Part shown: piece by piece, positions 1 to 30,000 of the stretch | How positions within the stretch are numbered: the stretch's first letter is position 1 | How the letters are laid out: the number at the start of each line of letters is the position of its first letter | Source: an uncultured Gammaproteobacteria bacterium | GTDB taxonomy: Bacteria > Patescibacteriota > Microgenomatia > JALYQM01 | Length of the DNA stretch: 64,000 nt | Reading direction: 5' to 3' | Assembly (NCBI GenBank): GCA_964525495.1 | Contig: CAZGHS010000006.1 | Coordinates: 10,891-74,890, forward strand | Program-made: the position numbers

Positions 1-3000
1 AGTTATTACGGTAATAGGTAGAGTGAGTAGAGATAAAAGAGGCTTAATGGTGATGTTAATTACACCTATAACAATCACGGCGATGACGGCGTTTACCCAA
101 CTTTCGATCTCAAACCCCGGGAGGATTCGAGTGATCAAGAGTAAGGAAATGGTGTTGATAAGAAGCCACTTGAGCATATTTTTGACTTTTGCTTTCTATT
201 CTTCTACATTGAGCATAGCATGAATTTACCAGAAATTAAACCAGCATTTGAATCTGTTCCGGATACAGGATCGTATGATGAGCCGCTGTTTTATGAGCGA
301 TCCACGTTTCATTTTTTGTTTTTGGTCTTGGTTATTTTGTTAATGTTTCTTCCATTTGTTACAACTTTTAATGAATTGCTAACAAAGATTGTTGAACATG
401 CTTCTTCGTATACACAGATACAAAATATTATTGTTCCATATCTTGTCCGGATGGTTGCTGTAGTGTTGTCGTGGTTTGGAGTTATAACTGAGCAATCTCG
501 GCACACAATTACGGTTAGACCTGACGCTATGACGGCTGGCGGAACGATTGTGTATATTTCCTGGAACTGTATCGGTTGGCAGTCGTTCTTACTTTTCTTT
601 TTGACCTTATTTACTGGATTGCAAGGAAACTATTCGATTCGCTCAAAAATTATTGGTGTTGTTTTTGGCTTACTTGGAACTTTCTGGGTAAATGTATTCA
701 GAATTAGTATAATTGTGCTGATTGCTCACTGGTGGGGTCGTTTGCCGGCTGTTATTTTCCATGACTATGGCAGTACAATACTTATTATTTTGTGGCTGTT
801 TGTGTTTTGGTGGGTGAGCTATCATCATATTCTTGAAAAAAGGTAATCCTCCTCAACTTCCTTTAGTCTTTGAGGAGTGCCAATATCTTTACAATATTCA
901 GTTGTTTTATATGCGTAAATATTATCTTGTTTGGATTCAATTATCTTAGGAAAGATATCTTTTTCAAAAGAGATGATTTCTTGCGAAGGAATATATTTAT
1001 TTACTTTGGAAGTTAATAAATATATTGAACCATTGGCGAGGTTGTTTTCTACTACATTGTTTTTGTGTGGTCTCGTTAAGAGTTTAGTTATTCTTGAGGT
1101 ATGATCTATTTCAAAGTGATCGCATTCCAATGGATAGTCCTTTGGTTGCGCTACGATAGTTGCTACGTTGTCTGAGGGTAAGTTGCGATGATAGCTAATA
1201 AACTTTTGCAAGTCCATTTTAATAAGCAGATCACCATATGTCACCATTATATCGGTTTGAATAGGCGTCGCGAGGGCTAGCCAACCCGCAGTACCTCTTA
1301 ATGTTGGTTCTTCAATGTATTCAATTTGAACACCAAACTTTTTTCCATCGCCGAAATATTCTTTTACTTTATCTGCTTGGTAATGTACTATAAGCAGGAT
1401 ATTGTTAATATTATTCGTTCTTAAAAAGTCGATTTGATGCTCAACGATAGGTTTTCCCGCTACTTTTACTAGCGCTTTCGGGTTTTCATGCGTTAGAGGA
1501 TGAAGCCGTGTGCCAAGTCCACCTGTAATTATGACTGCGTTCATATCTGTAATAATACCAACTCGAAATGAATTTGAAAGTATTAAAGAGTTAGTTTCTC
1601 GTATTGATGCAAGCTTAAAAACTAAAATAATAGACTATACGATTATTTTTGTTGATGGCAATTCAACTGATAATACTATTTCACTCATAAAATCTCTCGC
1701 ATTAGAATTTCCAATTAAACTTATTCAGCAAAAAACAAAAGGCAAAGCACAGGCGATACTTGAAGGGGTTCAAGAAGCCAATACTGAATATGTCGTTATG
1801 ATAGATGCTGATTTGCAGTATCCTCCAGAAGCTATCCCACAGATGTGGGCGATGCATCAGAAGACACCGGTAGTAGTGGCGCGACGTTTGGTACACAACG
1901 AATCTATGATTCGCAGATATGCAAGCCTTATTCATACTTTTTTCTACTGTCGAGTATTGTTTGGACTGACCTGTGATGTGCAGTCTGGACTGAAGCTTTT
2001 TCCGAAGAAACTACTTGATTATGTTGATGTTAAGGATATATCTCCTTGGACGCTTGATCTTTCGTTGCTCGTGGCCGCCAGAAAGCATAATTATGCAATT
2101 GGTGAAGTCCCTATTACTTTTAATGAACGCCAGCATGGTATATCCAAAGTCAATGTATTGCGTTCCTTTTGGGAACATACTGTGAGTGCTCTCCGCCTTA
2201 AGCTTAAAAATTAGTGACTATTTTAATGTGATCGCCTCTTTTTATTATTCCTTCTTGTACCACCTTTGCTTTATATGTGTGCGGCGAAACAGGGGAGAGT
2301 TGTACTTGGGCGATCTCTCCCATTTGTATAGTTTGAGTTTGTAGGAATGAATGAATCGGTGACTGAATCCGCCATAATATATGTGGAGATAGGGGAGTGT
2401 CATACTCTCCCCTTGTCAGTTTTGTGTCTGTACTCGCCTGCTCTATAGTTATGATGATATCTTTCCGCTGGTCGGCTGGATGCTTGACCAGTTCGAAATA
2501 ATGTTTGTATCGGCCAGCGAGATAGGCGAGGAACTGGTCGTCTTCTATATCACAGATATCTCCTTCTTGAGAGATTATTTTTACTTTCCATTTTCCTTCT
2601 TTTCTATATGTTTTATATAGTTTGAAACTCCTGAGATCTTCTTTGTCCAACGGCTTCATCCAAGAGTATTCAATGCTTTTACTTTCATCGATTAGCGAAT
2701 ACAACATATCTCCGCTTACTCCATATTTAGTGATGAGAACTTCGTCTATTTCTTGGCCCTCTAAGGGTATCACTGGCCTGACATTGAGCGTTTTTACATA
2801 TCCGATTGGTATCATGTAGGCATGATAATTTGTGCGTGATTAGGAGTGAATGACATTTTTGGCAAATATTTTGCCAATTTATGAAAGAGGATTGTGCTAA
2901 GATTGAACTATGGCTCGACAGCTCATAACTTCGATTTTTAGGTCGCGATTTTTGCCTTTTGTACTACTTTTTTTGTTACCTGTCTTTATTTTTTATAAAG

Positions 3001-27000: not shown

Positions 27001-30000
27001 AGCCTTATATGGATTTTGTACTACTAATAGAGCTGCGTTTTTAAGTTGAAGTTTTATGTTTGGTGAGAGGTATGGTGAGACGAGTGAAGCAAGTTTCTTA
27101 TATTGAAGATCTAGATTGTTATATATAGATCTAGTAAACGCATAAAAATCTGGCGGTGATGAGTTACCTGCGTGGAATATTTGCTGATCCTCAATGACAG
27201 GCTGTATAACTTGTTGTGGTCGAATCTCTGGAACAATTTGTTGAGTTGGGGTAGATCTGTAGCTAAATATATATCGCTTATTGGCGGTACTTAAATTATT
27301 CTTCTGCAACTGATTCTGAATCCAATGGCGACTTACTAGTTGTTCCCCGTTATTTGCAGAGCACAGGTAACTATATATTTTGTCTACGCTCCAGGTAGGA
27401 TTAGCAACTATTAAGTCTTTGACCATAGATATAATTCGATCATCTATAGTAGTTTTTCTTCCCTGCTTTCGGCTATTTGTGTGATTTTCCTGCTCACTCA
27501 CTTTCTTCCATTTATAGAATGTTTTTCTAGAAATACTAAATCGAGCGCACAGCTCAGATACAGTTTTATGTTCCTTCAAAGCATTGAGGAATTCTTGGCG
27601 AAAATTGGCAGTATCTTTTTTGCGGGCAGGCATAAGTTACTTCAATAATTAATCTTTAAATAGTGTTACCTTTTTAAGGTATTATGTCAACATATAAATG
27701 TTTTCTCCCATTTATGGATATAAATTTAGCCTTAAACGACAAAAAACACCTAAAAGAAGCCTCTACTACTCTCGTTTTAAGGATTTTTAATGGATACCTA
27801 TGACCGACCTATTAGTTAGTATTGCTGTACTGTTACCTATCTTTTCATGACAACTTTATGATCTTAATTTAATGTATTTAATCTTCTTTTTTAAACTACT
27901 GTTTTATGTATCTTGAAATTAACCTTATGCTTTATTTTTAATGTATATAACCCTATATTATCCTTATAACTTTTATACTTTCTTTTTTGTATTATTATTA
28001 CTATTCTATGCTGTTTAATAATGTATCTTTTCATAGTCAACTAATGTTTTGTTTTCATTCACATAAATTATTGAGTTAAGATTTAATTTTTATAGGCTAT
28101 GTTGTTTCCGTGTTGCGTATTGACCCACTCAGTAATATTTATTAGTATTAGCTTGTATAAAATTTAAGTGTGCATACGTATCTATGAATAACGATAGTGA
28201 GACAAATTTGGACAGCGAATACCTTGGCATAACCGAAGCGGCTGAATACTTACGCGTTTCAGCCTCAACACTGCGTAGATGGGAAAAAAAAGGGTTTTTG
28301 ATTCCTGAGCGTACTCCTACGGGAATTCGAAGGTATACTAAGAAACAACTCGATGATGTTATCCAATCACCACCTCAACATGACGTAGCTACAGCTGTAT
28401 CAAGTGCTCCTGCCACTGATTATCAAATGCAATCAGACTATTCATTAAATACTCCTCCTGAAGAGAGTAATCCATGGCAGACAGAGCCTTCTGTAGCTGA
28501 GATTGATTCTTATATTGAGGAAACCGATGTTGTAACTCCAACAATTACAGAGGATGACGAGGTTAAGCAGCTTCATAGCTTTTTTCAGCAAGCAGGATAC
28601 AGCTTCGAGCCATCACAAGATACCTCACAGTCTTTTTATTCAAAGAATGACGCTGTAGCGCCACAGGTTGATGAACCTGTAGCTCATGAAGTAGAACAGC
28701 AAGAATTACCAAAGCTTGACTATATTGAGGAACGAATTGAAGTTGAGACACCATCAGAACGTATCGAAGTGTTTCATGATGAATATATGCAACCGGAGGA
28801 GGATGCGCATACGTATAACGAGCCGTTTAAACAACCTCGTCAAGATCGCGTTGAAACAACAGATGATCTGCTTGCCCTTACCGATGACCAAGAGGAAGAA
28901 GAATATGAAGAGCCAGTAAGATCAGAACAACCTACAAAGAAAAGACCATCGAAGAAGAAGCTGGTTATTTTTACTAGCGTATTTGTAGCTGTTTTGTTTA
29001 TCGTATTTATCTCTTGGTCAGTCTACAGCTTTTATTCTTCTCCAGGCCAATTGTATAGTCCTGTTATTGAATGATCTACTTTGATGCCATCTCTTTAAGC
29101 TTTTCTAAGGCTTTGCTTTGCCCTATTACGTAAGCCAGCGTGTTATGTTGCTCCTGAGAAATGCCGGACTTAATTCCGTTTTGTAACGCTAAGAGTTTTA
29201 TTTCTTCATCGCTGACCTTAATATCATTTTTAATGCGAATCTCTTGCAAGATTAAGGCAATTTTAGTATTCTCCTTAGCTCGCTCGACCCATTCAGCTCT
29301 TACCTGTTCTTTGGTCTTGCTCTCGGTCTGAAGATAGGTATCAAAAGTTATTCCAAGCTTATCAAGTTGTCCAATAAAACGCTGTTCAATCCTATTAACC
29401 TCTTCATCGATTAGTAGATCAGGCATATCTATGTCTACTAACTCTTGTGCTTTCTTTATCAGCTCCTCTTCGTATTGTCGTTCTACACGAGTGCCTTTGT
29501 CATACTCTATTTCTGACTTTACCAGTGATTTTAAGTCATCGAGATTTTGAGCTCCAGCTGCTTTAGCAAATTCGTCGTCCATTTCGACTTCGACAGGAGC
29601 ATCGGTTGATTGTGATTCGTTATTTATATTGCCTGCTTTTTCTTTGGCATCTTGTGCTCTAATTTTCTTGTATTGCTGGAATATTTTTTCTATAGACTCA
29701 CTGACTTCTTTGTCAGTTACGTCTTCTTTTGCTGGCTTGCTTGCCTTTAAGTCTGACTCAATTTTGTCTACTGTTACTTTTGGATAAACTATCGCGCTTG
29801 CTGTTACAACCAATTGTTGGCCTGGCTTCCATTCACCTTCAAGTTTATAGTCAGGGTAATTTAAAAGCATGATGCGCTGTTTTGTATCAGTTTGTGACTC
29901 TTTGAGAGCTTTTTCAAACTCTTCAGGAATCAATGTGTTTAATGCATCTTCGTATATTTTGTCTTTTCCGATGCTACCCTCTACCATGGCCTCTGGAGCT

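Follow-up and report, generated by a model that had tools for sequence, protein, structure and literature searches.

Five GT-C glycosyltransferase genes, a giant synthase fusion and an exosortase-like gene form a conserved cell-surface locus in Patescibacteria

Introduction

What do five membrane glycosyltransferases (GTs) of the GT-C class act on when their genes are gathered beside a single giant synthase gene, and does the gathering reflect a common function? The question arises from a 64,000-nucleotide stretch of contig CAZGHS010000006.1 (assembly GCA_964525495.1), hereafter the window, in which two TMEM260/DUF2723-like and three YfhO-family GT-C genes lie with genes for a GT2, a sugar nucleotidyltransferase and an exosortase-like enzyme next to the gene for a 3189-aa protein, here called the giant. 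Patescibacteria, or Candidate Phyla Radiation (CPR) bacteria, depend on surface contact with their hosts, and the biogenesis of their envelope is almost unstudied. We find that the locus is a conserved cell-surface biogenesis neighborhood of a Microgenomates-like lineage of these bacteria and that it most likely specifies an extracytoplasmic glycosylation pathway, fed by polyprenyl-phosphate sugars, that is functionally tied to the giant. As the acceptor we favor, at a rough probability of 45%, the ectodomain of the giant itself, modified by protein O-glycosylation, over a glycan.

Results

TMEM260-like enzymes. The argument for a protein acceptor begins with the gene directly downstream of the giant, at 15902..18061 (minus strand), which encodes a TMEM260/DUF2723-like GT-C enzyme with a C-terminal TPR domain; we refer to it as DUF2723_15902 and name the other GT-C paralogs likewise by their first coordinate. 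It scores 71.7 bits against PF11028, and its paralog DUF2723_8171 (8171..10156, minus strand) scores 98.2 bits; both exceed the Pfam gathering cut-off of 24.2 bits, in agreement with the assignment made in an earlier note on this DNA. As a single sequence DUF2723_15902 matches human TMEM260 (PDB 9RQL) at 1.6e-17, and a profile of 12 homologs does so at 6.9e-36 over chain residues 31-560 of 729, a match that spans the GT-C core and the Rossmann-like domain. In TMEM260, D52, H67, R264, Y267, R355 and D441 are essential, D441 being the base that activates the acceptor Thr, and the TPR domain grips the extended peptide (bioRxiv 10.64898/2026.03.17.711096). These six residues align with D28, H43, R284, Y287, R374 and D464 of DUF2723_15902, of which five (all except Y287) are listed as invariant or ≥90% conserved in the 12-homolog alignment. 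TPR matches fall at residues 609-695, helical repeats occupy residues 571-717 of the AlphaFold (AF2) model, and the only significant fold matches of that model are to GT-C enzymes, plus TPR. DUF2723_8171, which matches 9RQL at 7e-18, gives no TPR match and, in a low-confidence phmmer alignment, keeps the equivalents of D52, Y267 and D441. On the strength of the retained residues we propose that DUF2723_15902 would O-glycosylate Ser/Thr.

YfhO-family enzymes. Two of the three YfhO-family genes, YfhO_12621 (12621..15080, minus strand; paralog 1) and YfhO_5889 (5889..8174, minus strand; paralog 2), score 51.0 and 69.3 bits against PF09586 (gathering cut-off 28.5 bits), whereas YfhO_2910 (2910..5273, plus strand; paralog 3) stays under the cut-off at 19.3 bits. 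Full-length blastp nevertheless joins YfhO_2910 to the other two at 1e-50 and 2e-49, and PF09586 is carried by nearly all of its 120 listed homologs. Its AF2 model, with a predicted local distance difference test score (pLDDT) of 92.4, has GT-C enzymes as all of its top nine PDB fold matches (AftD, AglB, STT3, ArnT), the best being the arabinofuranosyltransferase AftD. An Asp in the first loop, D47 in YfhO_2910, is invariant in 39 sequences, including all three window paralogs. We take YfhO_2910, from its homology and predicted fold, to be a true YfhO paralog despite its sub-threshold Pfam score; the YfhO assignment of the earlier note is thus upheld, by hidden Markov model (HMM) for two genes and by full-length homology with a GT-C fold for the third. 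YfhO_5889 is PgfM2-like in NCBIfam (65 bits), and YfhO_12621 has no sequence match in the PDB at E≤1. The window YfhO enzymes are proposed to transfer sugar from a polyprenyl-phosphate sugar to an extracytoplasmic acceptor.

Gene order and its conservation. On the minus strand the giant gene (18064..27633) is separated by a 2-nt gap from DUF2723_15902, which is followed after a 3-nt gap by the gene for a 273-aa membrane-anchored β-sandwich protein (15077..15898); this in turn overlaps YfhO_12621, the final gene of the conserved core cassette, by 4 nt. The 273-aa protein has an NCBIfam FxLYD match (28.6 bits, cut-off 23), a sub-threshold Glucodextran_B-like Pfam match (23 bits) and a single transmembrane (TM) segment at residues 36-54. 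Its orthologs are just 26-27% identical, yet they keep their position, and the gene is absent in two distant loci (L007 and L010); it is the fast-evolving middle gene of the cassette. DUF2723_8171 and YfhO_5889 form a second pair, whose 4-nt overlap at 8171..8174 suggests translational coupling.

The same gene set recurs in relatives, on some ten contigs and at 31-55% protein identity, and because it does so we regard the clustering as beyond chance. The conserved units are the run from the giant through DUF2723/TPR and, where present, the β-sandwich protein to YfhO; the DUF2723-YfhO pair; the GT2-YfhO pair; and the exosortase-family gene. All loci of about 50% identity with enough flank encode a giant of the helix-turn-helix (HTH)-GT2-Kelch type, then a DUF2723/TPR enzyme, a Glucodextran_B-like protein and a YfhO enzyme, followed by a variable stretch, an ion channel on the opposite strand, a second DUF2723-YfhO pair and a third YfhO gene. 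YfhO_12621 has orthologs of 50-54% identity at the same position and of 32-37% in distant genomes, and those of YfhO_5889 are 48-69% identical in the same arrangement. The ion-channel gene, of the two-pore type (10213..11007, plus strand; PF07885), is 45-69% identical and occupies an unchanged position in seven loci, amid a turnover of neighboring genes. At 31% identity, L007 has an HTH-GT2 giant of 2866 aa, whose ectodomain is not Kelch, then a DUF2723 gene 7 nt on and an overlapping YfhO gene; in Chisholmbacteria (L010) the giant, two DUF2723 genes, two YfhO genes and a GT2 gene follow one another in a single direction. A further locus, L008, has a GT-C cluster (PMT_2-like, DUF2723, YfhO) with no giant within 5.4 kb. 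Each window GT-C paralog has its own ortholog in distant genomes, and the five are therefore old, subfunctionalized paralogs rather than recent duplicates. The named homologs are Patescibacteria (Chisholm-, Davies-, Levy- and Curtissbacteria), and we regard the "Gammaproteobacteria" labels on some third-party annotation (TPA) assemblies as unreliable. The earlier note had held that assignment of its GT-C genes to unrelated families, or a lack of synteny with the giant gene in relatives, would undo its proposal; since the families are confirmed and synteny is kept down to 31% identity, neither undoes it.

Elsewhere in the same lineage, GT-C genes again lie beside surface-protein genes: in L014 (GCA_964535655.1, 10001..13541) a YfhO gene overlaps a PMT/PMT_2 GT-C gene among genes resembling those for type IV secretion system (T4SS) pilins and TraC/TraG.

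The giant and its C-terminal tail. From N to C terminus, the giant comprises a transposase-type HTH, TM segments, a processive GT2, further TM segments, a LamG domain, multiple Kelch propellers, a conserved C-terminal domain and a tail, as judged from Pfam and NCBIfam matches, motifs and TM predictions. The processive-synthase motifs are complete (DAD418, TED548, QRQRW586). The ectodomain extends over about 2,300 residues, of which 23% are Ser or Thr, versus 14% in the cytoplasmic part. The LamG/ConA-like domain occupies residues 963-1120 (24274..24747, minus strand) and is missing from the giants of relatives, where tblastn alignments jump from residue ~897 to 1126. Of the "synthase-lectin" description given earlier, the processive GT2 and the LamG domain are both present, with the lectin part specific to the giant of this genome.

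The C terminus of the giant (within 18064..18200, minus strand) consists of VVPER followed by a TM helix and RRRRK. A tail of this PEP-CTERM-like tripartite build, (V/I)PER with a TM helix and an Arg/Lys cluster after it, is found in seven giants (the window, L001, L002, L004, L007 with IIIPER, L010 with IVIPER, and L011), is kept even in giants of 31% identity with different ectodomains, and is unique to the giant within the window. The last 139 residues of the giant matched 17 cluster representatives among 1.84 billion proteins; the C-terminal domain so detected lies at the extreme C terminus of long proteins, except for weak internal hits in P0250, P0255 and P0257.

A candidate enzyme for this tail lies at 220..846 (plus strand), outside the coordinates covered by the earlier note: a 208-aa membrane protein of the exosortase/archaeosortase family, which scores 39.6 bits against TIGR04178 (cut-off 23) and brings no Xrt/Art subfamily model of NCBIfam near its cut-off. 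In four relatives the gene is 67-75% identical, more conserved than the GT-C genes, and lies beside the same cluster; one more orthologous position is found on a JGI contig, and in all an exosortase-family gene stands near the giant cluster in five loci. C117, R161 and H181 are invariant across five exosortase-like orthologs and, at the level of motifs, would be the catalytic residues. Exosortase/archaeosortase systems recognize a tripartite signal of motif, TM helix and basic cluster and may have as few as one substrate per genome (PMC6098224). A tripartite tail, an exosortase-family enzyme nearby and a possible single substrate fit such a system, and the giant is probably processed at its (V/I)PER tail by the neighboring enzyme.

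Donor enzymes. The interval between the exosortase-like gene and YfhO_2910, which we call the donor slot, holds in the window a sugar-1-phosphate nucleotidyltransferase (825..1544, minus strand), a GT2 (1510..2214, plus strand) and a 203-aa open reading frame (ORF; 2204..2815, minus strand) without a Pfam or NCBIfam match. The nucleotidyltransferase scores 127.7 bits against PF00483; its best NCBIfam match is mannose-1-phosphate guanylyltransferase-like, far under any equivalog cut-off, and an ortholog of 43% identity lies beside a GHMP sugar kinase in L015. The 234-aa GT2 (PF00535, 94.5 bits) matches in the PDB the dolichyl-phosphate (Dol-P)-mannose synthase DPMS of P. furiosus (5MLZ, 3e-23), ArnC (4e-14) and GtrB (2e-9), with a chondroitin-synthase match (6.6e-10) falling between the latter two; in NCBIfam it matches AglJ best, then ArnC and PgfS. 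AglJ is the Dol-P-hexose GT2 of the Agl pathway. Residues 99-107 read DADLQYPPE, and D-A-D-L-Q-x-P-P-E with its DxD is a hallmark of the polyprenyl-phosphate GT class. Because of these PDB relatives, NCBIfam matches and motif, the GT2 is assigned by sequence to the DPM1/ArnC/GtrB class of polyprenyl-phosphate sugar synthases. Its homologs are mostly 227-250 aa long, and, short and lacking TM segments, it resembles the catalytic-domain-only DPM1 type rather than CsbB/GtrB; the "CsbB/GtrB-like" label of the earlier note therefore stands as to class and not as to the C-terminal TM helices. The divergent GT2 and nucleotidyltransferase ORFs overlap at their 5′ ends (1510..1544); the true GT2 start is likely the ATG at 1531, and even then 14 nt of overlap remain.

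The content of the slot changes from genome to genome. L015 has a GHMP sugar kinase, a nucleotidyltransferase and a GT2; the JGI contig a GHMP kinase and a GT2; L016 a WecB-like epimerase and a GT2; L012 a VanY-like protein and L013 a 279-aa uncharacterized protein, both without a GT2. This variation suggests that different strains activate different sugars. Where the slots of other genomes hold a GT2, its gene lies 3-166 nt upstream of a YfhO gene, and in three of them (L015, L016 and the JGI contig) that gene is the YfhO_2910 ortholog, directly downstream; in Chisholmbacteria L010 the GT2 ortholog is placed after the YfhO genes. The idea that the GT2 supplies a lipid-linked sugar to the GT-C enzymes therefore gains support for at least YfhO_2910, while its extension to all five, as first proposed, is an inference.

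Extent of the locus. An ORF map of the 64-kb window reproduced the reported coordinates exactly, and the inventory of two DUF2723 genes, three YfhO genes, a GT2 and a nucleotidyltransferase is borne out by HMM, paralog and fold evidence. The picture of one 27-kb operon, all linked to the giant, did not survive: the genes are divided between the two strands and make up at least five units, and the opposite-strand ion-channel gene divides the two GT-C pairs. On the minus strand the core cassette runs on into HAD-IB (11914..12609) and AKR (11023..11880) genes, both identified with Pfam and NCBIfam, and of the 2-4-nt junctions claimed for the whole run those from the giant through YfhO_12621 are correct, whereas YfhO_12621 and HAD are 11 nt apart and HAD and AKR 33 nt. 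Promoter and terminator scans gave counts equal to those of shuffled sequence, so that transcription units are not definable from those scans. Neither HAD nor AKR, counted earlier as members of the island, has an ortholog in any related locus, where NUDIX, DNA_alkylation, Peptidase_S51, CYTH or methyltransferase genes take their place; the two are strain-specific passengers outside the conserved module. The 203-aa ORF is probably outside the system as well, and we rejected all three as pathway members since they are absent from all related loci.

Other features of the giant. At its N terminus (27250..27633, minus strand) the giant has a transposase-type HTH (IS481/IS630/IS3-like) fused to the cytoplasmic end of a membrane glycan synthase. 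The fusion is not an assembly artifact, because it is conserved in relatives including L007, and the HTH may be a membrane-tethered DNA-binding domain. In two relatives the giant is split into consecutive ORFs (L001, 1..9856, 2301 and 942 aa; L002, 3..7678, 632, 527 and 1229 aa), splits that may be real or may be assembly frameshifts. A GlxA-like radical copper oxidase was one candidate identity for the Kelch region, which we rejected: the region scores 212 bits against a cut-off of 800, over eight stretches, which we take as generic Kelch similarity.

Discussion

We posit a pathway that begins with the nucleotidyltransferase, which would make a nucleoside-diphosphate sugar for the soluble GT2 to load onto polyprenyl phosphate on the cytoplasmic side of the membrane. 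Some flippase would carry the lipid-linked sugar across, and the GT-C enzymes, five paralogs of ancient divergence (two TMEM260-like, three YfhO), would transfer the sugar outside the membrane. DUF2723_15902 would O-glycosylate Ser/Thr on extended segments of the giant's ectodomain as this emerges, with the YfhO partners adding or extending sugars on the giant and perhaps on further surface proteins. Anchored at both ends to begin with, the giant would finally be cut at its (V/I)PER tail by the exosortase-family enzyme.

The ectodomain is favored as acceptor because DUF2723_15902 keeps the TMEM260 residue set together with a TPR domain, because 2-7 nt separate the stop codon of the giant from the DUF2723 start in the window and L007, because a related genome has another YfhO and PMT pair within a cluster of pilin-like genes, and because streptococcal YfhO-family enzymes glycosylate Ser/Thr-rich regions of surface proteins, with the Pgf operon lying beside the genes of its substrates (PMC12041528). 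Its Ser+Thr content, higher than that of the cytoplasmic part, is a further point in favor. A tentative but serious alternative is that the processive GT2 of the giant extrudes a β-glycan, to which the five GT-Cs add side-chain sugars outside the membrane while the Kelch/LamG ectodomain holds or organizes the polymer. The completeness of the DAD, TED and QRQRW motifs would then find its explanation, as would the co-variation, across lineages, of the GT-C genes with the HTH-GT2 head rather than with the ectodomain. AftD, the best fold match of the YfhO model, points the same way, and there are precedents in GT-Cs that act on streptococcal rhamnopolysaccharides and mycobacterial arabinan and in YfhO enzymes that act on lipoteichoic acid, the B. 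subtilis and Listeria enzymes being reported to act on teichoic acid (PMC5836110, PMC8035078). Against a glycan acceptor stand the full TMEM260 residue set and the peptide-gripping TPR architecture of DUF2723_15902; in the literature searched, no bacterial DUF2723 protein acting on a glycan turned up, and YfhO enzymes are also proven protein GTs (PMC12041528).

The GT-C set could instead be housekeeping for many secreted proteins, such as pilins or the P/T-rich protein ending in LPSTG described below, its place beside the giant reflecting only the clustering of cell-envelope genes. Streptococcal GtrB/PgtC2 does glycosylate many Ser/Thr-rich regions (PMC12041528), the window encodes that LPSTG protein with its long P/T/S linkers and a second P/T-rich protein, the GT-C cluster of L008 has no giant close by, and L014 shows further GT-C genes elsewhere in a related genome. 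Such a general role is unlikely, given that the DUF2723 gene follows the giant's stop codon so closely in both the window and L007 and that the order giant-DUF2723-YfhO survives at 31% identity while the flanking genes and the stretch between the two pairs change freely. It is very improbable that there is no functional link at all, with phylogenetic inertia alone holding the genes together and the GT-Cs serving unrelated lipid or cell-wall functions: most fully syntenic loci do come from one lineage, at about 50% identity, but neighboring genes outside glycosylation are not conserved over the distances at which the GT-C/giant/GT2/exosortase set is, and in Chisholmbacteria that set is regrouped as one co-directional array.

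Several observations weigh against O-glycosylation of the giant followed by cleavage of its tail. The HTH-GT2 head and the tail are constant across lineages and the ectodomain is not, so that in this respect a glycan acceptor fits equally well. Proteins that export or modify exopolysaccharides can have TPR domains too, and the TPR domain is therefore no proof of a peptide acceptor. H67, R264 and R355 of TMEM260 are not kept in DUF2723_8171, by the low-confidence alignment mentioned above. Only one Ser/Thr-rich tract of the streptococcal kind is present in the giant (residues 2204-2254). The giant lacks the human sequon P-x5-P-x3-G-P-x2-[GA]-G-G-x2-[TS], although a bacterial sequon may differ, and shortened patterns of it are not clearly above those in shuffles. 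On the donor side, the GT2 has no hydrophobic or TM segment and so lacks the C-terminal TM helices of CsbB, GtrB and ArnC; it is missing from the donor slot of two close relatives (L012 and L013); and no GtrA-type or other flippase was found among the island and window ORFs scanned with Pfam, a scan that covered, of the ORFs from 52551 to 63507, the two P/T-rich proteins only. As to processing, the tail reads PER and not PEP, no curated CTERM or sorting-signal model of NCBIfam matches the tails of the giant and of L007, and no exosortase gene was seen in the flanking sequence retrieved for L007, L008 and L010, the distant loci.

Three further features of the window lie outside the cluster. At 48749..50029 (minus strand) a DedA/VTT-domain protein adjoins a homolog of Lit, the lipoprotein intramolecular transacylase; DedA proteins are implicated in polyprenyl-phosphate recycling, and this one could bear on the missing lipid-carrier steps. 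The P/T-rich proteins at 52551..56518, named earlier as GT-C targets, are 25 kb off, with no evidence of linkage to the cluster. One of them (52551..54914, minus strand) is a 787-aa P/T/S-rich protein with a DUF11 repeat that ends in LPSTG, a TM segment and basic residues, a sortase-type signal; though unlinked to the cluster, it is a plausible target of a YfhO-type enzyme. At 30191..31469 (minus strand) lie two adjacent nucleoside-diphosphate-kinase-like genes, each with an interrupted or partial NDK domain match.

All component families of the locus are known, and their combination was not found described in the literature searched; this holds for the joining of two TMEM260-like with three YfhO enzymes, for a swap-in donor slot, for a minimal exosortase and for a giant in Patescibacteria that joins a synthase to a (V/I)PER tail. 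Bacterial relatives of TMEM260 appear in the literature only as "distant homologs", and searches on DUF2723 in bacteria, on CPR with O-mannosyltransferase and on Patescibacteria with Kelch and glycosyltransferase returned nothing relevant. The locus offers a concrete, conserved gene set that is testable by heterologous expression, without culturing the organism. It also opens to study in bacteria the TMEM260 O-mannosyltransferase family, in which the human gene is a congenital-disease gene. The tail may be a new C-terminal sorting signal with a minimal exosortase as its partner, and the swap-in donor slot could drive strain-level variation of the surface glycan. One may go further, on admittedly long odds, and imagine a CPR-specific coat system in which the synthase-fused giant is O-glycosylated during export by TMEM260-type and YfhO enzymes dedicated to it, cut by a one-substrate exosortase-like enzyme at a new (V/I)PER-CTERM and re-anchored to a lipid or to its own glycan, a hypervariable donor slot changing the sugar between strains. 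Such a system would provide the first function for bacterial TMEM260 homologs and the first exosortase-type system described in Patescibacteria, and it would parallel the maturation of archaeal S-layer glycoproteins.

Comparison with known systems

The logic of a GT2 that makes a lipid-linked sugar for a GT-C enzyme of the YfhO family is shared with CsbB/GtcA/YfhO of B. subtilis (PMC5836110, PMC7389260). Unlike that system, the window has a soluble GT2 and no GtcA/GtrA flippase gene was found in it; lipoteichoic acid is an unlikely acceptor at this locus, teichoic acid genes having been considered within the window only. With human TMEM260 (9RQL; PMC10214176), DUF2723_15902 has in common the GT-C core, the Rossmann-like domain, the TPR domain and all six essential residues. 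It differs in its low identity and in its donor, which would be a bacterial polyprenyl-phosphate sugar; there are no IPT-domain targets, the giant has no human sequon, and DUF2723_8171 lacks the TPR domain and some of the essential residues.

Another counterpart is the Pgf system of S. mutans, in which the GT2 PgfS, the epimerase PgfE and the YfhO-type GT-Cs PgfM1 and PgfM2 are encoded beside the adhesins Cnm, CnaB and CbpA. In Pgf, as in GtrB/PgtC2, the lipid-linked sugar made by a GT2 is transferred by a YfhO enzyme to Ser/Thr outside the membrane (PMC12041528), as is proposed for the window. In NCBIfam the window GT2 matches PgfS and the YfhO genes match PgfM1/PgfM2, although with scores far under the equivalog cut-offs (62 vs 500; 65 vs 1500), and one relative (L016) even has an epimerase in its donor slot. 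Unlike Pgf, the window combines three YfhO with two TMEM260-like enzymes, its GT2 has no TM helices, it belongs to a CPR bacterium, and the putative substrate is a 3189-aa synthase fusion and not an adhesin of the LPXTG type with Thr-rich repeats.

The S-layer glycoprotein of Haloferax volcanii is both glycosylated and processed by ArtA at a PGF-CTERM tail (PMC6098224). Here the differences are that the window is bacterial, that its signal is (V/I)PER and not PGF, that the 208-aa exosortase-like protein fits no named subfamily, that O-linkage through TMEM260/YfhO enzymes is proposed in place of AglB N-glycosylation, and that the surface protein forms one chain with a polysaccharide synthase. 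What the two systems share is a large surface protein whose C-terminal tail has a tripartite build, an enzyme of the exosortase/archaeosortase family and, in AglJ of the Agl pathway, the best NCBIfam match of the window GT2.

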